The notes under the pieces: generated by a model
Databases searched by the model: none
The model's input: only the letters and a program-made list of their open reading frames with translations
Told to the model about the DNA's origin: nothing
Shown here: piece by piece, positions 1 to 7,924 of the stretch
Layout of the letters: each line of letters starts with the position of its first letter
Position numbering within the stretch: the stretch's first letter is position 1
Source: Nanobdellota archaeon
Lineage (GTDB): Archaea; Nanobdellota; Nanobdellia; Nanobdellales; Nanobdellaceae
Reading direction: 5' to 3'
DNA: 7,924 nucleotides
Assembly: GCA_020697515.1 (NCBI GenBank)
Contig: JAIXNB010000017.1
Span: 1 to 7,924 of the forward strand
Program-made: the position numbers and the translations under genes

Positions 1-2
1 AA

Positions 3-107
3 AGGGCTTTAGAATTTGAAAAATTAAAGAAACATAAAATAGATCTAGAAAGAAATAAAGATAAATATTTTAAGAATTTGGAAAAGAGTGTACTAGGATT
101 GTACTAA
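3..107 (+). CDS. 3' end of an upstream gene cut by the window edge; hypothetical, Lys/Glu-rich helical tail
   Basis: Frame 3 is open from the window edge to TAA at 105-107 and translates as RALEFEKLKKHKIDLERNKDKYFKNLEKSVLGLY*. A T7 run follows at 172-178. No start codon is visible and no family is recognised. Confidence 0.3.
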   Translation, partial: RALEFEKLKKHKIDLERNKDKYFKNLEKSVLGLY

Positions 108-171
108 AAGCGCCACGCATAATTTTAGTAATGTGCTTAAAAATTCATATGTTTATATATTATACTTATTC

Positions 172-276: not shown

Positions 277-846
277 TTAGAGAGAGTTTAGAGCCTCTGC
301 TAATTCTTTACCTGCTTTCTCAATGTGTCCTTCTTGATTTTCTATTACTATCACTGGAATATGCAGATCATATGCCAAGTTTAAAGAATAATTTAGTATC
401 AAATCTTGGTGCAGTTTTATTAAATGTGCCAACTCAATGTCTCTCTGTCTGGTTTTATCTTTTAGACGTCTATGTAGGATGTAATGAGGTTCTGCAATAA
501 TAACCACTATAAAGTTCGGTTTCAAATATTTCGCCATCTCTTTACTTAAACCAGGTAAGAAACCAAACTTAGTCTTAACTAGGAAGTGTGTATCAATTAA
601 TATATCCTTATCTTTATATTTATCGTAAAGGGTTTTACATGTTTCTATCTGGGCTTTATAATAAATATTATATGAAACCTTTTTTCTAATTTCGTCCTTA
701 TTCCTAAGATTATAGTATTTTTTTAGATGTTCAAACAAGATATCTCCAAAGTTTATTACCTCGAAGTTTCTATTTAGATATTTCTTTGCGGCATTCAGTA
801 CAGTCGTTTTTCCAACACCAGGAACACCCACAATAAGGCCTATCAT
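277..846 (-). CDS. adkA: Archaeal-type adenylate kinase (AdkA family)
   Basis: 189 aa. The N-terminal P-loop MIGLIVGVPGVGKTTV (GVPGVGKT encoded at 805-828) matches the archaeal Adk start. Further family-typical blocks are INFGD, LIDTH..VKT..G.LPGL and RRL.D.TR.RD. Length fits the roughly 190-aa archaeal AdkA. Its start overlaps the upstream gene by 4 nt. Confidence 0.9.
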   Translation of the reverse strand: MIGLIVGVPGVGKTTVLNAAKKYLNRNFEVINFGDILFEHLKKYYNLRNKDEIRKKVSYNIYYKAQIETCKTLYDKYKDKDILIDTHFLVKTKFGFLPGLSKEMAKYLKPNFIVVIIAEPHYILHRRLKDKTRQRDIELAHLIKLHQDLILNYSLNLAYDLHIPVIVIENQEGHIEKAGKELAEALNSL

Positions 847-1298
847 CCTAGATATTCTCTAGGTCTCCTATACTCTACTTCTCTATCCCAGAATTCTATC
901 TTTTGTTTTAATATATGACTGGCATTCTCAACAAAGTCTTCAATAGATTCATTAGTAATTTTTATAAACTCTATATATAACTTTTCATCATTTAAGACTG
1001 TTGCTAGCTCATACATCCTTTGACATTTGAGTAGTTTCTTATAAACCTTCCATAGAGTTTGAATATTAATATTTGTACCTCTTATTTCATGAGATATTGC
1101 CAAATCCCCTATATCTGGATTTAAAATATCTTCATATACTGAGCGGAGTATATCTAGTTTTTCATAAATCGCCTTAGCTAATTTTTCTATACAATCCTTT
1201 TTATTTTTCGCATGTTCAGGTATTTCAACATATTTTTCAAGGTTATTTAGAGGTATCTCTTTAAAAACCCTCCTACATTCATACTTTTGAGACTCCAT
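843..1298 (-). CDS. Hypothetical protein, 151 aa, predicted all-helical and soluble
   Basis: This is the only long ORF here. The start ATG at 1296-1298 overlaps the argS 3' end by 20 nt and the stop overlaps the adkA start by 4 nt, so co-transcription is likely. No hydrophobic segment and no motif I can assign. Confidence 0.6.
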   Translation of the reverse strand: MESQKYECRRVFKEIPLNNLEKYVEIPEHAKNKKDCIEKLAKAIYEKLDILRSVYEDILNPDIGDLAISHEIRGTNINIQTLWKVYKKLLKCQRMYELATVLNDEKLYIEFIKITNESIEDFVENASHILKQKIEFWDREVEYRRPREYLG

Positions 1299-3240
1299 CT
1301 ATCTTTAAGATATAGTATAGCTTTTCAAGAATTTGCTGTGTTAAATATACTAAGAATATTCTATAAGGCTTTTCATCAAGTTCCGGCAAAATTGGAACGT
1401 TTTGATAGAATTCGTTGAAAGTTCGTGCTAACTTTAATGAGTACTCTGCCAATAGGTTGAGTTCTAAACTAGAACTAATTTCTAATACTACATCTTTGAA
1501 TAGAAATACAATCTTTAACAATCTTCTTTCATAGTCATTCAGATCTTTAATACATCGTATATATTCTTTAAAATCTTTAATGCCAGATTTTTCTAATAAA
1601 GATTTTATTCTAGCATATGTATACATCAGATAGAGAGCGTTCCCTTCATCTATATTCGTCATTCTCTCCAAATCAAATACAACTGTTTTATTCCTATCAT
1701 ACTTAAGTATCTCAAAAGATATTGTGCTCCTGGCTATTTTAAATGCCAATATTTCTAAATCTTTATCAGATAAATTTGTATGTCTCTCTGCTATTTTCTT
1801 TTTGGCTAACTCGATAGTTTTTTCCAGTAGATTATCAACATTTATATAAATACCCTTTCTACCAGACATTCTAATTACTTCCTTATCAGAATCCATCCCG
1901 AATAGACTAGCAGTATTCTTAGATAACATAACTAAGCCATATCCATAGTAAATATACTTCGATTTTCCTCTAGATACTTCATTAATTATTTTTGATAGTA
2001 TTGATTGTAAATATGATTGCTCAGATCCTATTACGTTTATAGATATGTCGGCTTTTCCGAATTCTTTTGGGTTTTCTTTCCCATTAATATCAGTTTCCCA
2101 TAATTCATTTCCATTAGGTTGAATACAAAATATAGAATATTTAAAGTCTATATCAATTAATCCATGCTTCCAGAATGCATAAGCTATATCCTTTGCAAGA
2201 TAAACAGTAGTCCCATCCGATCTTACAAGGACTTTGTACTTATCTGTCAGATTTTTGAACTCTTTCCAGCGAGTTAGATCTATAGACCATGTACCCTTCT
2301 TATCACCTTCAGTAACGAACTCTATAATCCCTTTCTCTTTTAGTATTTCAAAAGTTTTATTCCAGAGGTTAAAATGAAGAATATCGCTCTCTTTGTTCAA
2401 TAGGTCATAGTATATATCAAAATTCCATAGAGTTTTTAATTGTTCTTCAAGAACTTTCTTCACAATCTTTTTATTTAACTTGTAAATTTCATTATTCCCT
2501 TTCTCTATCTTTTTTATAACTATTGCTCTATACTTTTCTAGATCTGGAATTAATTTGTATAACTGGTTTACTATGACATAGATAAAATCTCCACAATAAT
2601 GATCAAACTTTTTTGGAATTGTATACCCATAGATCTTCTTCAAAATTCTTATTCTGTTTTTGATAATATCTTTGATATTCCTTTCTATATCTCTTTTATA
2701 CAATCCTTCCTTCTTCAGAAACTGTATTATGCTATCAACTAGCCTTTCAATATTTATATCTTCAGGATTCTCTGGGAATCCTAAAAAATATAAACCTACT
2801 ATAACATCCGCAATCTGACTACCAGTATCATCTATATAATTTAAAACCTCTACTTTATATCCTAAAGCTTTAAAGAATCTTACAATACTATCTCCTAAAA
2901 TAGCATTTCGGAGATGGCCAATATGAAGCGCTTTATTAGGATTTACAGATGTATGTTCAACCATAATCTTTATTTTTGGTGTATTAAACGAGAATAAGCT
3001 TTCCCATTTATCTATTACTTTTTCCCAATCTAAATTAATATTTAAGTATCCACTGACAACTTCAAAATCTTTTATATATTCTTTAATTCTATATATTATC
3101 TGAGTCGCTACTTCTTCAGGGCTTCTTTTCTGCTTTTTTACTTCTTTAAACATTTTTATAGTATAATCGTAATCCACATGTTTTGGGGGCTCCGTTATGT
3201 CTATATCAAATTCTTTCAGATGCTCTTTCAACAACCACAT
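1279..3240 (-). CDS. argS: Arginine--tRNA ligase (class I arginyl-tRNA synthetase)
   Basis: 653 aa. A literal HIGH signature sits in NPNKALHIGHLRNAILGDS (HIGH encoded at 2914-2925). VLVRSDGTTVYLAKDIAYAFWK matches the ArgRS catalytic core. RMSGRKG stands in for the degenerate KMSKS loop. The C-terminal helical DALR-type anticodon-binding region includes LAEYSLKLARTFNEFY. N-terminal add-on domain ends GYLNINL. Confidence 0.93.
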   Translation of the reverse strand: MWLLKEHLKEFDIDITEPPKHVDYDYTIKMFKEVKKQKRSPEEVATQIIYRIKEYIKDFEVVSGYLNINLDWEKVIDKWESLFSFNTPKIKIMVEHTSVNPNKALHIGHLRNAILGDSIVRFFKALGYKVEVLNYIDDTGSQIADVIVGLYFLGFPENPEDINIERLVDSIIQFLKKEGLYKRDIERNIKDIIKNRIRILKKIYGYTIPKKFDHYCGDFIYVIVNQLYKLIPDLEKYRAIVIKKIEKGNNEIYKLNKKIVKKVLEEQLKTLWNFDIYYDLLNKESDILHFNLWNKTFEILKEKGIIEFVTEGDKKGTWSIDLTRWKEFKNLTDKYKVLVRSDGTTVYLAKDIAYAFWKHGLIDIDFKYSIFCIQPNGNELWETDINGKENPKEFGKADISINVIGSEQSYLQSILSKIINEVSRGKSKYIYYGYGLVMLSKNTASLFGMDSDKEVIRMSGRKGIYINVDNLLEKTIELAKKKIAERHTNLSDKDLEILAFKIARSTISFEILKYDRNKTVVFDLERMTNIDEGNALYLMYTYARIKSLLEKSGIKDFKEYIRCIKDLNDYERRLLKIVFLFKDVVLEISSSLELNLLAEYSLKLARTFNEFYQNVPILPELDEKPYRIFLVYLTQQILEKLYYILKIDGVSKV

Positions 3241-3288
3241 TAAAATTTTGGATTTTATAAAAATTTAAAGAAACATATACTAGAAAAT
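3241..3288. promoter_or_regulatory. Divergent promoter spacer with archaeal TATA-like elements
   Basis: A 48-bp, almost pure A/T spacer lies between the argS start (3240, minus) and the 3289 ATG (plus). TTTTATAAAA at 3253-3262 is about 27-36 nt upstream of 3289, which fits a short or leaderless mRNA. TTTAAA at 3264-3269 read on the minus strand sits about 25-30 nt from the argS ATG. Confidence 0.35.
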
Positions 3289-3690
3289 ATGTCTCTATCT
3301 ACCACAACCAGACCTGATAAAGGAACCCTCTCTGATAGGGTTCTAAAGGTGAAAAGGTCAGTTGAGTTACCAGCAAATGTTATAGTTATTCTTATAATAG
3401 CAGTTATGGTCTTGCTGGGGTTAATTATGTTCTTTTTTAATAATTATATTAAACTATCTCCTCCCATAATTGGGCTGTCTAAGAACACAAGTGAAGAGCT
3501 AAAAGGAGTTTTACCTTGTAGTAATCTATCTGAATTTGTTATAAAACGGATGTGTATTTCTGCATGTTATAAAATTGGACATGGTTATAGATATATAGGT
3601 GAGTATCATATAATGAATGTATTAGGAGTTATAAAGTGTAAATGTTCGAATATAAGCAATATAGAATATGTAGAGATAGAATGTCAGTGA
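3289..3690 (+). CDS. Membrane-anchored cysteine-rich small protein A (paralog of the next gene)
   Basis: 133 aa. A hydrophobic helix (ANVIVILIIAVMVLLGLIMFFF, aa 29-50) follows VKRSVELP. The ectodomain has 6 Cys (77, 89, 93, 117, 119, 132) and sequons NTS, NLS, NIS. First gene after the promoter spacer. An in-frame GTG at 3349 would give MKRSVELPANVIV as an alternative start. Confidence 0.7.
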   Translation: MSLSTTTRPDKGTLSDRVLKVKRSVELPANVIVILIIAVMVLLGLIMFFFNNYIKLSPPIIGLSKNTSEELKGVLPCSNLSEFVIKRMCISACYKIGHGYRYIGEYHIMNVLGVIKCKCSNISNIEYVEIECQ

Positions 3691-4016
3691 GAGCACAGGC
3701 AATACAAACAATAGTTTTAATTATCCTTGCCTTGATAGTACTAATCGCAGGTATAGTTATAATCAACAAAATATCTTCTAGCGCTGGTAGAGGTATATCT
3801 GAATTAGAAAATATAAAAAAGTCAACCGCTGGGGATATATTAGGAAAATGTGCATTGCTTTCTTCACAGGAGATATTTGAAAAATGTAAAAAAGTTTGTG
3901 AAGATGCCTGTTGCAGTTATAAAGATTATAAACTAACTGATGGAAAACTACTATGCATATGCTATTGTCATGATGGTGCTATAAGGTATAATCGAAAAAT
4001 ATGGGTTGATTGCTAA
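3681..4016 (+). CDS. Prepilin-like (class III signal) cysteine-rich small protein B
   Basis: The ORF track starts this gene at 3642. I prefer the in-frame ATG at 3681, which overlaps the upstream stop (ATGTCAGTGA) and gives MSVRAQAIQTIVLIILALIVLIAGIVII. That is a short basic N-terminus, then R-A|Q-A, then a hydrophobic helix. The ectodomain has 9 Cys and shares C-x11-C-x3-C with protein A. The stop overlaps the next start (TAATG). Confidence 0.7.
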   Translation: MSVRAQAIQTIVLIILALIVLIAGIVIINKISSSAGRGISELENIKKSTAGDILGKCALLSSQEIFEKCKKVCEDACCSYKDYKLTDGKLLCICYCHDGAIRYNRKIWVDC

Positions 4017-4105
4017 TGCATGAGGAAGTAGTAGAGATTATTTATAGAGTTATTATTTTCGTAGTACTAATGGGAATAGTGTTATATTTATTTATGATAG
4101 TTTAA
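4016..4105 (+). CDS. Micro-ORF, 29-aa single-pass membrane peptide (not in the ORF track)
   Basis: Hand translation gives MHEEVVEIIYRVIIFVVLMGIVLYLFMIV*. The ATG overlaps the previous TAA by 1 nt (TAATG) and the stop lies 6 nt before the next ATG (4112). It fills the only apparent gap in the operon. It is short, so a chance ORF in AT-rich DNA remains possible. Confidence 0.4.
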   Translation: MHEEVVEIIYRVIIFVVLMGIVLYLFMIV

Positions 4106-4111
4106 TATTTA

Positions 4112-5401
4112 ATGAGAATATCCTCAATATCATTTTTATATGTACGGCTTATAGTAGTAATAATTACGTTTATACTAGCAGTATATATTTTAACTAAGTT
4201 TGTAAATGTGTTAAATTATGATGGTAGATTTAGTTGCAAGATGGGCGCTGCTGTTGCTAATGTCTTCCTAGGTCCAGTACCAGATAAAGAAAAAGCTTGG
4301 ATGTTTCTAGCAGCTGCTCCCGCTGCAGCCGTGCTCTTAGGACTTGCATATGATACATGGAAAGATAGGGATATAATATACATAAGGGATACAATTACGA
4401 GGACCACGATGCCTGGGATGGTACATATTAAAGCTGAAAGAAGAGTTTGGCGTCTTAATGAGAAAGCTCTTAAAGATCTAATGAATGGGGCAAAAAGAGC
4501 CACAAAAGGTATTAGTGGTTCAATATTTAAGATGGCTAGTAAAAGTGGTAAATCTTTATTAGCTGGAGGAATAATAGCTGCATTAAGCGCTATACTTTTA
4601 GGATTTTTAGATGATGATTCCTCATCAAAGAAACTTCCTTTTACAGACGTTCTTATGAAAATAGCAATATCAGCCCTAAAACTGTGTTATCCAAAACCGA
4701 TTATAATACCTGTAGACAGCATACAGTTAAGTTGTCATAAACTCGATGAGTATTTGAAAGAACAATTAACCAGAGACGCGTATACTGCTTTGCAGGAACT
4801 AATTAAGGAAAATAAAATAGAGACATGCTCTCCCGATTCCCCAGATTGGATAGAATTATTCCTGGATATAGAAATTGCCAAGTTAGGAAAAATGACTTTT
4901 GAAGAAGGTCTGAGAGATACAGAATTACCTATACCAACGCTACATTATGTTCTCTTCTTAGAGAAGATTTCTGCATTAAACAAGGGAGGAAATAAAGAAT
5001 GGAAATTCGGGGAAGCTGAAATGGTGTGTTGGTGGAACCTAATAAGATTCAGAGGGAAGAAAAAGGTCAGCTATTATAAGGAAATCTATGGAAAAGTAAA
5101 GGAGGTATATGATAGTGGAGATGTAAACAATATAGATACTAGTAAGAACATTTGTTGGATGATTTTAGAAGAGCTTGGAAAGAGTAAGGAAGATATACTG
5201 ACTAATAGCGAGGGTAATAACTATATAGCACCATTTTCAGATGAAAATAGCTGTACTGGAGATATTAAGGAGTGTGCAAAAGGAAGGTATGTTGCTAGTT
5301 CTATAGAATCCTCAAATTATAAGACTAATAGCATTGCAGTGAACTTCTATCATGCTGTTGGTAGATTGCTTGTTTATTTAGTGCACTACAATGTTGAATA
5401 G
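4112..5401 (+). CDS. Polytopic membrane protein D with a large Cys-containing C-terminal domain; unknown function
   Basis: 429 aa. N-terminal anchor MRISSISFLYVRLIVVIITFILAVYIL. Ala-rich helix AWMFLAAAPAAAVLLGLAY (aa 62-80). A very basic loop spans aa 81-147. A second helix is SLLAGGIIAALSAILLGFL (aa 148-166). The following domain of about 260 aa has 7 Cys. No recognised family. Confidence 0.75.
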   Translation: MRISSISFLYVRLIVVIITFILAVYILTKFVNVLNYDGRFSCKMGAAVANVFLGPVPDKEKAWMFLAAAPAAAVLLGLAYDTWKDRDIIYIRDTITRTTMPGMVHIKAERRVWRLNEKALKDLMNGAKRATKGISGSIFKMASKSGKSLLAGGIIAALSAILLGFLDDDSSSKKLPFTDVLMKIAISALKLCYPKPIIIPVDSIQLSCHKLDEYLKEQLTRDAYTALQELIKENKIETCSPDSPDWIELFLDIEIAKLGKMTFEEGLRDTELPIPTLHYVLFLEKISALNKGGNKEWKFGEAEMVCWWNLIRFRGKKKVSYYKEIYGKVKEVYDSGDVNNIDTSKNICWMILEELGKSKEDILTNSEGNNYIAPFSDENSCTGDIKECAKGRYVASSIESSNYKTNSIAVNFYHAVGRLLVYLVHYNVE

Positions 5402-5567
5402 ACTAGTTGCAATAGTAATAGCGATTATCGCGCTTCTTATCTTAATTTTATTTGCTATGAAGATAGTAACACCAAAAATATTTGAGAATTTGGATATAAT
5501 CCGAGATATTCTACCTATAACACTTATATTAAAGAACAACTATTATAGAAAATGGATAAATTTATAG
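5391..5567 (+). CDS. Small ORF, 58-aa N-terminally anchored protein E (not in the ORF track)
   Basis: Hand translation gives MLNRLVAIVIAIIALLILILFAMKIVTPKIFENLDIIRDILPITLILKNNYYRKWINL*. It overlaps the gene D end by 11 nt and the gene F start by 16 nt. It has the same short basic N-terminus plus hydrophobic helix as its neighbours. Confidence 0.45.
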   Translation: MLNRLVAIVIAIIALLILILFAMKIVTPKIFENLDIIRDILPITLILKNNYYRKWINL

Positions 5568-5914
5568 TAGCAGTCATATTAATGCTGGTTGGTACATTGT
5601 TATTATTATATTTCTTATTTTACTTTAGCAAAGGTTCTATAGATATATTCAATCAAAAATATAATGAGACTGCAAAACGTATAGTAAGTGATCCAATTTT
5701 ACCAGTTTTGTTTATTTTTGATGTTAGAAGACTAAAAAGATCATCAGTACAAAATTTTATAGTATACCTAATACTAGCTTTGGTGGTTATTTTAGCATTC
5801 CTGTTTTTATATAATAAAATATCACTGAGTGTAAAACATGGCAGTGAGAATATATTTGGAATAGCCAATAAAACAATAGGAGAACCCCAAATAACTAATA
5901 TAACTACTGAGTAA
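5552..5914 (+). CDS. Two-helix membrane protein F
   Basis: 120 aa. Helix 1 is MDKFIVAVILMLVGTLLLLYFLFYF. Helix 2, NFIVYLILALVVILAFLFLY, follows RRLKRSSVQ. Sequons NET, NKT and NIT are present. Same strand and packing as the operon, so preferred over the antisense ORF 5653-5868. Confidence 0.65.
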   Translation: MDKFIVAVILMLVGTLLLLYFLFYFSKGSIDIFNQKYNETAKRIVSDPILPVLFIFDVRRLKRSSVQNFIVYLILALVVILAFLFLYNKISLSVKHGSENIFGIANKTIGEPQITNITTE

Positions 5915-5919
5915 TACTA

Positions 5920-6594
5920 ATGGGTGTGAGGATACTAACTAGTATTTTATATGATGCTATCATAGTTATAATAATACTATTTATAACTATCTATTTAGTT
6001 ATACCTTTACTTTTCCCAGATAATGAGCTATTGCAGTTAAAGAACTCTTTGAAGGCAGTATGTGAAAATAATCGTGCATCTCGGGATTTCCATATATCGT
6101 TGAAAAACTATGATCTATTATTTAAAAAGGGTGCCAAAGAATATACAGTATCTATATTATTATGTGATGATTATAAGATATACAACAATACTAGGTATAG
6201 AGAAAACTGTAAAGTTGTATATGAGTTAGATTGTGGTGTTAGTAAGGTGGTACTTAAATCCGAAAGTACAAAAATCAAGAGTTTTACTCTAGCAGGAAAA
6301 TGTTATAGTATTTACCCAAAACCTTTTTATGAGGTTCAAATCCCAAAACCCTTTGAAGATTTGATTTGTATCCCTATCGGCCTTCACTTTACTCTTATAA
6401 TAGGTCGTAAATACATATCTTCTGTTAGCGGTTTTTCACAAAAAGATTCCTTCGCATTAGGAGATTATTGCTATATTGATTATTGTAAATATGACGCTTG
6501 TGGAGAGAATGATGATATTCTAACTAAAGAGATAACGGGGATTCTTACAAGGCAGGATGATACACTGTACGTGGAAATATATTCAGCTAAATAA
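5920..6594 (+). CDS. N-terminally anchored cysteine-rich protein G
   Basis: 224 aa. The anchor is MGVRILTSILYDAIIVIIILFITIYLVIPLLF. The ectodomain has 9 Cys, including CYIDYCKYDAC, and a duplicated PKPF motif. It starts 5 nt after gene F and its stop overlaps the next start (TAATG at 6592-6596). Confidence 0.75.
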   Translation: MGVRILTSILYDAIIVIIILFITIYLVIPLLFPDNELLQLKNSLKAVCENNRASRDFHISLKNYDLLFKKGAKEYTVSILLCDDYKIYNNTRYRENCKVVYELDCGVSKVVLKSESTKIKSFTLAGKCYSIYPKPFYEVQIPKPFEDLICIPIGLHFTLIIGRKYISSVSGFSQKDSFALGDYCYIDYCKYDACGENDDILTKEITGILTRQDDTLYVEIYSAK

Positions 6595-7679
6595 TGGAGG
6601 ATAAAATATTACAGATTTTGGCGTCATCCTTAATATTTGTGGTTCTTTTATTTATAATTATAAAACTCTACTATTATTCATCACATATTTTTCCGGGAGA
6701 AACATACCCTATAACTTTGGAACTAGCTACTGCAATATCTTATAGCGTCTCTATTCCAGGAGATATAGAGATAGATTTACCTGCATATATAATTTATGAA
6801 AGCAAAGGAGATCCCCGTTCAACACTTGCAACCGAATTAAAAATAAATAATGGGAAATATAGAAATAATATAGTTTATGGGGTGTGTTACTATAGAGATT
6901 TAAAAGACGATGTAAAAAGAGCGTTAATAGATAGTACCATTAATGCAATTAATGGTATTCTTATGGGGTCTACATTAGGATGGCTAGCAAGACTTGCAGG
7001 AGTTGGATCTACAATAGCTTTATCCGGAGGAGTAGAGTGGTCGCTAGAGATAGTAGGACAAATTGCAATTAATTATTGCTCTAACTGGTTATATAAGGAA
7101 GCAGACTTTGAAAAAATATATTTATTGAGTCAAAAATATTTTGTGGATTCGGTTACAGAGGACATTAAAAGAGAAATTAAAAAAAAGAAATCCAGAAGCA
7201 CTGCAGAAATAATCGCAAATTATGCTATAATTTGTGCAACTGCTGCAGCTGTACTCTTTGATGGTTTAGGGCTTATTGCTCTAGCCATTACTACCATAAT
7301 TGCTAGAATAGCTATCCCATTAGTGTATTGGGCTACTGGCCCAGATCTATTGAAGAATTGTTGGTATGGAAATCCAAAAAATTGGGGATTTATAAAAATA
7401 AATGAAGATATGTACTTTTGGAATCCTGAATTTTCCTTAAAGGTAGAGATAGCAAAAAAAGAGAACGGTACTATGATATTATCGAATGTTTCTGAACGAG
7501 AGGAAGAATCCCAGAGTATGGGCGGTAGTGAAGAGGTTGTAAGGTGGTTTTTTATAAACCCATCTCCAGTTATAAAGGATATGAATAATCATACGTATAT
7601 AACTATTAAAATGATTAAGTTGAAAAAAGAAGAAAAATCAAAAGAGTTAAGGATAACTGCGTTTATTGAATCAAAATGA
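6594..7679 (+). CDS. Membrane protein H with Gly/Ala-rich helical hairpin regions; unknown function
   Basis: 361 aa. The anchor is MEDKILQILASSLIFVVLLFIIIKLYYY. Gly-rich hydrophobic region ILMGSTLGWLARLAGVGSTIALSGG (aa 122-146, inside the aa 113-160 stretch). Basic loop KREIKKKKSRS. Second hydrophobic block AEIIANYAIICATAAAVLFDGLGLIALAITTIIARIAIPLVYWA (aa 204-247). The C-terminal domain is acidic with sequons NGT, NVS and NHT. Confidence 0.75.
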   Translation: MEDKILQILASSLIFVVLLFIIIKLYYYSSHIFPGETYPITLELATAISYSVSIPGDIEIDLPAYIIYESKGDPRSTLATELKINNGKYRNNIVYGVCYYRDLKDDVKRALIDSTINAINGILMGSTLGWLARLAGVGSTIALSGGVEWSLEIVGQIAINYCSNWLYKEADFEKIYLLSQKYFVDSVTEDIKREIKKKKSRSTAEIIANYAIICATAAAVLFDGLGLIALAITTIIARIAIPLVYWATGPDLLKNCWYGNPKNWGFIKINEDMYFWNPEFSLKVEIAKKENGTMILSNVSEREEESQSMGGSEEVVRWFFINPSPVIKDMNNHTYITIKMIKLKKEEKSKELRITAFIESK

Positions 7680-7924
7680 GAGTTCAAGATATACTTATTT
7701 CAGTGATAGTTCTCTCATTAACTTTACTTACGATATTATTACAATATAATCTAATAAAGATATATACACTCAAATATGAAACAGTCCCTCTTGAACTCTT
7801 AGTACTTGCTGATGAAATACGTATGGAGAAATTATTATATTCTCAATATTTATCTTCCGGAGATCCCAATTATATGTTTTACTTTGATTCGCGTATAAAA
7901 GATAGTATTATAGAAGAAAACTTA
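7676..7924 (+). CDS. N-terminally anchored protein I, truncated 3' by the window edge (not in the ORF track)
   Basis: Its ATG overlaps the gene H stop (ATGA at 7676-7679). The frame stays open for 83 codons to the window end: MRVQDILISVIVLSLTLLTILLQYNLIKIYTLKYETVPLELLVLADEIRMEKLLYSQYLSSGDPNYMFYFDSRIKDSIIEENL. It shares the post-helix motif ET-x-P..LEL with protein H. Confidence 0.6.
   Translation, partial: MRVQDILISVIVLSLTLLTILLQYNLIKIYTLKYETVPLELLVLADEIRMEKLLYSQYLSSGDPNYMFYFDSRIKDSIIEENL

Follow-up and report, generated by a model that had tools for sequence, protein, structure and literature searches.

The DNA analyzed here, positions 1 to 7,924 of contig JAIXNB010000017.1 (the whole 7,924-nucleotide [nt] stretch is called the window below), comes from the AT-rich archaeon Candidatus Nanopusillus sp. 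(Nanoarchaeota). Nanopusillus is a tiny hot-spring archaeon that lives attached to another archaeon. G+C content is ∼30% across the whole window, and no GC discontinuity was seen. Beginning at position 3289, nine plus-strand open reading frames (ORFs), named A, B, B', C, D, E, F, G, and H, follow one another with junctions of -10, -1, +6, -11, -16, +5, -1, and -4 nt, exactly the values in an initial annotation of this DNA, and form one co-oriented overlapping operon. That annotation had also placed the cluster in an AT-rich archaeon beside housekeeping genes, which proved right: the arginyl-tRNA synthetase (ArgRS) gene, argS (1279 to 3240, minus strand), and the adenylate kinase gene, adk, lie alongside. 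Five public contigs carry the same locus, and the gene after H on the longer contigs is convergent, so the operon comprises nine genes. Database entries name G “hypothetical protein EYH22_03580” and list B, C, E, and F as EYH22_03560 to EYH22_03575, all “hypothetical.”

The first two genes encode small Cys-rich paralogs with a common Cys scaffold (C57, C69, C73, and the C-terminal Cys). A (3289 to 3690) comprises 133 amino acids (aa) from the ATG at 3289 or 113 aa (MKRS/VELPAN...) from the GTG at 3349, and it joins a prepilin-like N-terminal module to a 6-Cys ectodomain (C-x11-C-x3-C ... C-x-C ... C). In phmmer searches, it matched 137-aa and 68-aa proteins of Nanoclepta minutus (locus L010) at 4e-6 and 5e-5, respectively. 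B (3681 to 4016; 111 aa; MSVRA/QAIQT...) also pairs a prepilin-like N-terminal module with a Cys-rich ectodomain, here with nine Cys; its orthologs in Nanoclepta and in a DRC bin (L008, Nanopusillaceae) are 55-aa proteins made of a transmembrane segment (TM) and a tail, with three N-x-S/T sequons per tail. B' (4016 to 4105; 29 aa), which is called as a gene on a longer contig of the same organism (L001), is a single-TM microprotein with an acidic N terminus. It shares 72% identity with the copy in L014, a closer relative from the same sample as the window, and has positional counterparts in L010 (MEFTEILK...) and L008 (MEFEDILK...).

The remaining genes are likewise on the plus strand. In C (4112 to 5401; 429 aa), an N-terminal anchor is followed by two more hydrophobic, Gly/Ala-rich segments (residues ∼62 to 80 and ∼148 to 166) around a basic loop of ∼65 aa and by a C-terminal domain of ∼260 aa with seven Cys; G38, R39, C42, and K43 are invariant in a seven-sequence alignment. 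D (5391 to 5567; 58 aa) is another single-TM microprotein, with a partial ortholog in L014 (84% identity over 31 aa) and 44- to 46-aa positional counterparts in L008, L010, and L015, the last being a partial copy of the locus. A basic loop connects the two strong TMs of E (5552 to 5914; 120 aa), the second of which (residues ∼63 to 95) is preceded by KRS (KRG, KRT, or KKA in orthologs) and followed by a short sequon-bearing tail. The N-terminal anchor of F (5920 to 6594; 224 aa) carries a conserved acidic residue within the helix and is followed by a 9-Cys ectodomain; phmmer found a homolog in L006 (1.6e-10). G (6594 to 7679; 361 aa) has an N-terminal anchor, Gly/Ala-rich helices, a hydrophobic hairpin at residues ∼206 to 248, and two invariant Cys (C98 and C256). 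H, the last gene of the operon, begins at 7676 and runs past the window end at 7924, so that the first 83 of its 261 aa (MRVQDILISV...) are in view; it consists of an N-terminal anchor and a 6-Cys ectodomain and has Asp at position 5, as in the orthologs MMRG-ISISD (L010) and MKKS-LSFTD (L008). An upstream start for H was ruled out by an in-frame TGA 9 nt upstream.

Every one of the nine products contains, inside its first 45 residues, a 19-residue span with a Kyte-Doolittle mean of 2.4 to 3.5, which upholds the N-terminal hydrophobic helix that the initial annotation had assigned to each. Among neighboring noncluster proteins, 4 of 29 pass a lower cutoff of 1.6, and 3 of those 4 belong to another minicluster. 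The accompanying description of the products as only N-terminally anchored was too strong: this helix is the sole predicted membrane segment of A, B, B', D, F, and H but not of E, which has a second TM, nor of C and G, each with additional hydrophobic stretches that weaken or disappear in distant orthologs.

All Cys lie beyond the N-terminal helix. Their counts (6 in A, 9 in B, 8 in C, and 9 in F) agreed with those annotated earlier except in C, which had been given seven. Cys make up 2.46% of the residues of the window cluster and 1.7 to 1.9% of those in L008 and L010, compared with 0.69 to 0.74% in housekeeping proteins encoded on the same contigs. Sequons occur at 0.82 to 1.36 per 100 aa versus 0.40 in housekeeping proteins, and the tails of the small subunits (16 to 34 residues) reach 9.6 per 100 aa, a ∼24-fold increase. 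The earlier suggestion that the outer parts are rich in sequons stood for the window proteins overall, in which the enrichment is ∼2-fold, and failed for B and C, which have none. The C-terminal enrichment of Cys and sequons fits surface exposure, and we infer an outward-facing topology.

Related loci were recovered by means of an ArgRS search. In L010 and L008, argS is divergently adjacent, at 38 to 39 nt, to a run of N-terminally hydrophobic proteins, and L015 holds part of such a run. The gene order in these relatives is a 68- to 69-aa protein, a Cys-rich protein of 133 to 137 aa, a 55-aa protein, a microprotein of 33 to 35 aa, one or two C-like proteins, a microprotein of 44 to 46 aa, a two-TM E-like protein, and then F-like, G-like, and H-like proteins followed by I and J. 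Thus, synteny, which had been proposed as a check, was recovered: the order recurs beside argS in two further Nanoarchaeales bins as well as in Nanoclepta minutus. Nanoclepta has I and J, which the window organism lacks; C is duplicated in L008, and the Cys-rich domain is fused onto A and B in the window and encoded as a separate protein in L008 and L010. Profile comparison by hhalign with the counterparts from Nanoclepta and the DRC bin supports orthology for C (97.6% probability; E = 3.7e-12; 289 columns), G (96%; E = 4e-9; 257 columns), and E (94.7%; E = 6e-8), with cross-family controls at ≤1.1% probability. F and H have only positional counterparts in L010 and L008 (hhalign E = 0.005 for F, not significant).

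Sequence divergence within the cluster is rapid. L014 keeps A, B, B', C, and D at 58 to 84% identity, with ArgRS at 77%, and where ArgRS identity is 60%, cluster proteins are 22 to 36% identical. The ORFs are kept as ORFs across related lineages at 20 to 70% identity, so all nine, including those of 29 and 58 aa, are conserved coding genes; each related lineage that was inspected has counterparts of B' and D at the corresponding positions. Divergence this fast relative to ArgRS would be typical of exposed proteins; Jarett 2018 (PMC6142677) reported the highest density of nonsynonymous single-nucleotide polymorphisms in proteins of nanoarchaea that were classed as “hypothetical external” and have a single TM at the N terminus. 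The operon appears to be vertically inherited, fast evolving, and specific to Nanoarchaeales (family Nanopusillaceae).

Searches of Pfam, NCBIfam, PHROGs, and PADLOC returned nothing significant for the window proteins or their orthologs, and together with the Protein Data Bank (PDB) profile searches described below, they bear out the view that these proteins match no described family. Equally, the G profile matched nothing in GTDB species genomes, and the C and G profiles matched nothing in JGI metagenome contigs or in IMG/VR. G fell into 3 clusters among 5.8 billion proteins, with 4 matches in an exhaustive hidden Markov model search of 1.8 billion cluster representatives. C fell into four clusters by single query and seven by a seven-sequence profile, and the sole name among them was “Nanoarchaeales archaeon.” Overall, there were four to seven clusters per family among billions of proteins, nameless or “hypothetical,” and the families are lineage specific, as had been suggested.

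Some N termini in the cluster partly resemble those of prepilins. Directly behind the N-terminal basic cluster, or behind the one ahead of the second TM of E, stands Ser, Ala, Gly, or Thr in 27 of 37 orthogroup-by-lineage cases, against an expectation of 22% (P ≈ 0.006 when each family is counted once). The identity of this residue swaps between orthologs (KRG-YISF versus MRS-FISF; in the H family, Gly in L010 and Ser in L008). In the A family, KRA, KRS, KKS, or KRT precedes VE[LI], as in MKRA-VELPAN (L014), MKKS-VEI (L010), and MKKRT-VEI (L008), and the related contig L007 has M-ELPAN. The start of the hydrophobic domain of A is thus fixed (VE[LI] or MEL) despite a leader that varies from 0 residues in L007, where an in-frame stop lies 6 nt upstream, to 3 to 4 in L010 and L008 and either 3 or ∼23 in the window and L014. 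B orthologs begin MPMRA-LAIQN in L014 and MKKRS-IAIE and MKRKS-LAIE in Nanoclepta and the DRC bin, with Glu or Gln at +4 or +5 throughout the family, and members of the H family have Asp at position 5 from the putative cleavage site or, in leaderless forms, from Met1. Archaeal class III signals require a basic residue at -2 (PMC3387779), and the peptidase PibD takes leaders as short as 3 to 4 residues and tolerates sequence changes close to where it cuts (PMC4307647). Makarova 2016 described orphan type IV pilus ATPases in nanoarchaea, for which no partner pilins could be identified. Within the window, A (KRS/VE) and B (VRA/QA) fit a class III signal loosely, and C fits it weakly.

An acidic class of N termini was also observed in Nanoclepta and the DRC bin, where M-[ED]-x-x-E-hydrophobic-L-[KN] (MEFTEILK, MEFSEFLK, and MDIGEMLN) is common to B'-, D-, and G-like genes, with Glu at position 5 counted from Met1. 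These N termini may reflect the opposite membrane orientation or may resemble the N terminus of a mature pilin.

A TM-plus-tail module is common to A, B, and both halves of E (phmmer, 2e-5 to 8e-4). Shuffle z-scores for TM similarity, which are inflated by hydrophobic clustering and were used only for the contrast with other subunits, were 4 to 10 for this group versus ≤∼4 for the others. The second half of E resembles B (phmmer, 2e-5) and consists of KR[S/G/T/A], a TM, and a tail of 16 to 28 aa, with two sequons in the tail in two of three lineages. If E were cleaved at this internal KR[S/G/T/A] site, a pilin-like fragment of 50 to 55 aa would be freed. E and its orthologs (L010, 7471 to 7800; L008, 4152 to 4496) look like a first TM and basic loop fused ahead of a B-like minisubunit.

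Based on these features, we favor the reading that the operon encodes a Nanoarchaeales-specific cell-surface assembly built partly from prepilin-like subunits, to which we assign a probability of roughly 40%. We infer the topology, signal cleavage, complex or filament formation, tie to distant machinery, and function as follows. The N-terminal hydrophobic helices would insert the products into the cytoplasmic membrane, with disulfide-stabilized, N-glycosylated C-terminal parts facing outward. A class III-like signal, in which basic residues and one small residue precede a hydrophobic stretch of 20 or more residues, would be removed from A, B, and the C-terminal half of E by a prepilin-type peptidase acting on the cytoplasmic side. 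Once processed, these small subunits, along with the larger anchored F and H and perhaps C and G, would form a short pilus-, pseudopilus-, or stalk-like structure on a membrane base of E, C, and the microproteins B' and D; the platform protein and ATPase, both of the type IV filament kind, would be supplied from elsewhere in the genome. The role of such a structure would likely be adhesion to or contact with surfaces or the host cell, and a host-contact function is plausible given the biology of the organism and the literature.

The archaeal type IV pilin sets (Aap and Ups of Sulfolobus, Epd of Methanococcus processed via EppA, and PilA1-6 of Haloferax) offer the closest parallels. Like the window operon, they comprise several small proteins per operon, with a short basic N terminus directly before a hydrophobic helix of 20 to 30 residues, a related N-terminal module among subunits (here A, B, and the second half of E), a variable leader, and glycosylated exposed parts (here predicted from sequons). 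Archaeal pilin genes can also be located away from those for the ATPase and platform protein (PMC4858521). Unlike those sets, the window proteins have no profile similarity to pilins or archaellins, mostly have Ser or Thr at the putative -1 position, include some leaderless members, have extra TMs in some subunits and Cys-rich ectodomains, and are encoded with no ATPase, platform, or peptidase gene nearby. The bacterial pseudopilin and Tad systems (GspG-K, ComGC-GG, and Flp-TadE-TadF-TadG) similarly combine tiny subunits of 50 to 70 aa with larger N-terminally anchored ones encoded by overlapping genes, and an acidic fifth residue in the presumed mature form of the H family is a further likeness to bacterial pseudopilins. 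The differences are an archaeal host, the lack of homology, and the lack of adjacent secretin, ATPase, and platform genes; moreover, neither the motifs G/FTLIE and G/xxxxEY (Flp) nor the N_methyl and Flp_Fap profiles matched. The “hypothetical external” proteins of Jarett 2018 (PMC6142677) and the “conserved predicted membrane proteins” of Wurch 2016 (PMC4935971) come from the same phylum and share the single N-terminal TM, rapid diversification, and proposed link to host interaction, but they constitute a category rather than one particular locus. In the literature that was searched, no description of the nine-gene operon beside argS, its gene order, or its modular build was found.

Several observations weigh against assembly from prepilin-like subunits. 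No match to Class_IIIsignal, Pilin_N, Arch_flagellin, Flp, or N_methyl was obtained for any subunit or ortholog (thresholds of E ≤ 1 for the nine proteins, E ≤ 0.1 for 10 orthologs, and E ≤ 10 for 11 small-subunit modules), while as a positive control, Arch_flagellin (PF01917) detected an ArlF/G-like protein beside adk in L007 at 7.9e-13. Profile searches of the PDB, which includes solved archaeal pilins, with C, G, and the small-subunit families gave chance TM matches only, and the AlphaFold2 models of C and G (predicted local distance difference test scores of 44.7 with a 7-sequence alignment and 37.9 with a 4-sequence alignment, respectively) were judged unusable. D, F, G, and H of the window are without the signal motif, the putative -1 residue is mostly Ser or Thr and not the canonical Gly or Ala, and a preference for small or polar residues at the helix N-cap could explain this position. 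E, with its two strong TMs, is polytopic, and the extra hydrophobic segments may make C and G polytopic too; as they stand, such proteins would not be extractable into a filament. The charges flanking the first TM are roughly balanced, so the positive-inside rule gives no verdict on orientation, and the acidic N termini of B', D, and G may point outward. Finally, no assembly ATPase (FlaI/PilB type), platform protein (FlaJ/TadC), or prepilin peptidase was found within 10 kb on L001, L008, or L010, so that the extension of the contig downstream that had been advised in search of these genes came up empty. Makarova 2016 also reported two nanoarchaea in which no prepilin peptidase could be recognized. 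In sum, the likeness to pilins or pseudopilins noted at the outset survives in the [KR]-[S/A/G/T]-plus-hydrophobic N terminus and variable leader of A, B, the second half of E, and several orthologs, and it does not extend to profile matches, to machinery within 10 kb, or to C, E, and G with their extra segments.

A permanently anchored, nonfilament, hetero-oligomeric envelope complex unrelated to type IV filaments is a possible explanation that we consider nearly as likely as the prepilin-like assembly. Here the helices would be kept as signal anchors, C and E would form a polytopic core, and the ectodomains would build a fixed surface structure, for example, an anchor for the surface layer, a platform for receptors or adhesins, or a site of transport or contact. 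The failure of pilin profiles despite a working control, the extra TM or hydrophobic segments in C, E, and G, the absence of assembly machinery nearby, and the lack of a small residue at the putative -1 position of window D, F, G, and H all agree with such a complex, and tight coupling with conserved order would suit any stoichiometric complex. What it leaves unexplained are the conserved small residue of changing identity (G/S/A/T), the A leader of 0 to ∼23 residues ahead of a fixed VE[LI], and the repeated 55- to 69-aa modules of a TM and glycosylated tail. Alternatively, the products could be independent, fast-diversifying surface glycoproteins (a variable coat or adhesins) that are cotranscribed without forming a joint complex and share an operon solely for coexpression, a reading that we regard as unlikely. 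It draws on the very fast divergence relative to ArgRS, the shuffling of domains (the Cys-rich domain fused or separate, and C duplicated in L008), the variable 3' gene content (I and J), and the diversification of “hypothetical external” proteins in Jarett 2018, but it is at odds with the pervasive start/stop overlaps and with a strict nine-gene order, including ectodomain-less microproteins of 29 to 58 aa, across ∼60% ArgRS identity. Moreover, the microproteins and the two-TM E would make little sense as stand-alone adhesins.

It is very improbable that the large domains are instead cytoplasmic, with N-out/C-in anchors, and form an intracellular membrane-associated scaffold. The balanced charges around the first TM, the acidic N termini, devoid of basic residues, that B', D, and G have in L008 and L010, and the few Cys and sequons in Nanoclepta G would agree with this arrangement; set against it are N termini that are mostly basic and C-terminal enrichments of 3-fold for Cys and up to 24-fold for sequons in most subunits. 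Orphan genes, many small membrane proteins, and fast evolution could also suggest a module from an integrated virus, plasmid, or defense island. However, such a module was rejected after PHROGs, PADLOC, and IMG/VR all gave no relatives, and no integrase, tRNA, flanking repeats, or GC discontinuity was found (tRNA, Rfam, and repeat scans of the window yielded nothing relevant), while the argS-adjacent position among housekeeping genes is kept in several genera. With IMG/VR scanned for G and C, a viral or mobile origin is effectively excluded.

The locus bears on the means by which Nanoarchaeota hold on to crenarchaeal hosts and obtain host lipids, nucleotides, and amino acids. Wurch 2016 (PMC4935971) named “conserved predicted membrane proteins” as a place to look for host interaction, and this operon is a concrete, syntenic, multisubunit candidate that exists in the cultivated system of Nanoclepta minutus and Zestosphaera. 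It adds nine protein families without a Pfam, NCBIfam, PHROGs, or PADLOC match, and it suggests a relaxed class III signal, with Ser or Thr at -1, or a leaderless form. More speculatively, and with distinctly long odds, the operon might be the nanoarchaeal side of a host-contact or “feeding” apparatus, an undescribed kind of machine with pilin-like modules, some of them leaderless. Its leaderless subunits (L007 A, MELPAN; window H, MRVQD; and the MEFxE/MDIGE class) would be able to dispense with a prepilin peptidase, in keeping with reports that some nanoarchaea lack this enzyme. E and the microproteins would serve as a polytopic base, and the Gly/Ala-rich hydrophobic hairpins of C and G would insert into or bridge to the host membrane.

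Upstream of the operon, a 48-nt divergent intergenic region (3241 to 3288) separates the argS start at 3240 from the ATG of A and contains one AT-rich, near-palindromic TATA-like element (3253 to 3269). Only 35 to 48 nt, with a single element of this kind, separate the argS start codon from that of the first gene of the operon in the window (3241 to 3288), L007 (90 to 124), L008 (7736 to 7773), and L010 (9962 to 10000). To judge from this spacing and element, the region is probably a compact bidirectional promoter from which both mRNAs are leaderless or nearly so. A 40-nt stretch of it (3242 to 3281) is 70% identical to positions 7377 to 7416 inside G, including GGATTTATAAAAAT, and the copy in G might be a promoter-like element within the gene or might reflect chance similarity between AT-rich sequences.

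On the other side of argS, a 151-aa protein (843 to 1298, minus strand) overlaps both argS and adk (280 to 846, minus strand; archaeal adenylate kinase, PRK04040 of NCBIfam). It is kept in L007, with the ILNPDIGDLAISHEIRG motif, and received no family assignment from Pfam, NCBIfam, or PHROGs. The gene convergent with H (L001, 7651 to 9480, minus strand) encodes a 609-aa protein with PIN, ATPase, and KH domains that scored 767 bits to PRK13764 and 513 bits to the Holliday junction branch migration ATPase PINA, the latter below the cutoff of that model. This adjacent “T2SSE” gene was rejected as the pilus ATPase: its Pfam T2SSE match is weak, it is of the PRK13764/PINA type instead, and it is not adjacent in Nanoclepta.

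A second minicluster lies ∼7 kb past the operon end, between a DUF460 gene and rpl22 (L001, 14486 to 15497, minus strand). Its three overlapping genes, for which no family match was found, encode proteins of 96, 109, and 132 aa with the hydrophobic starts MRSQFVILLTVF, MNPIIVLEIIISIL, and MKPIEILVVVMYLS. At the left end of the window, a 16-codon ORF (70 to 120, minus strand; MRGAFSTILVHSFPNS and a stop) matches the N terminus of the archaellin-family gene that follows adk in L007 (MRRAAFSTILAHALLF...). The rest of that gene is gone in the window organism, where a convergent HEPN-domain gene (1 to 106, plus strand) holds the site, and the short ORF looks like the remnant of an archaellum accessory gene that has been lost.

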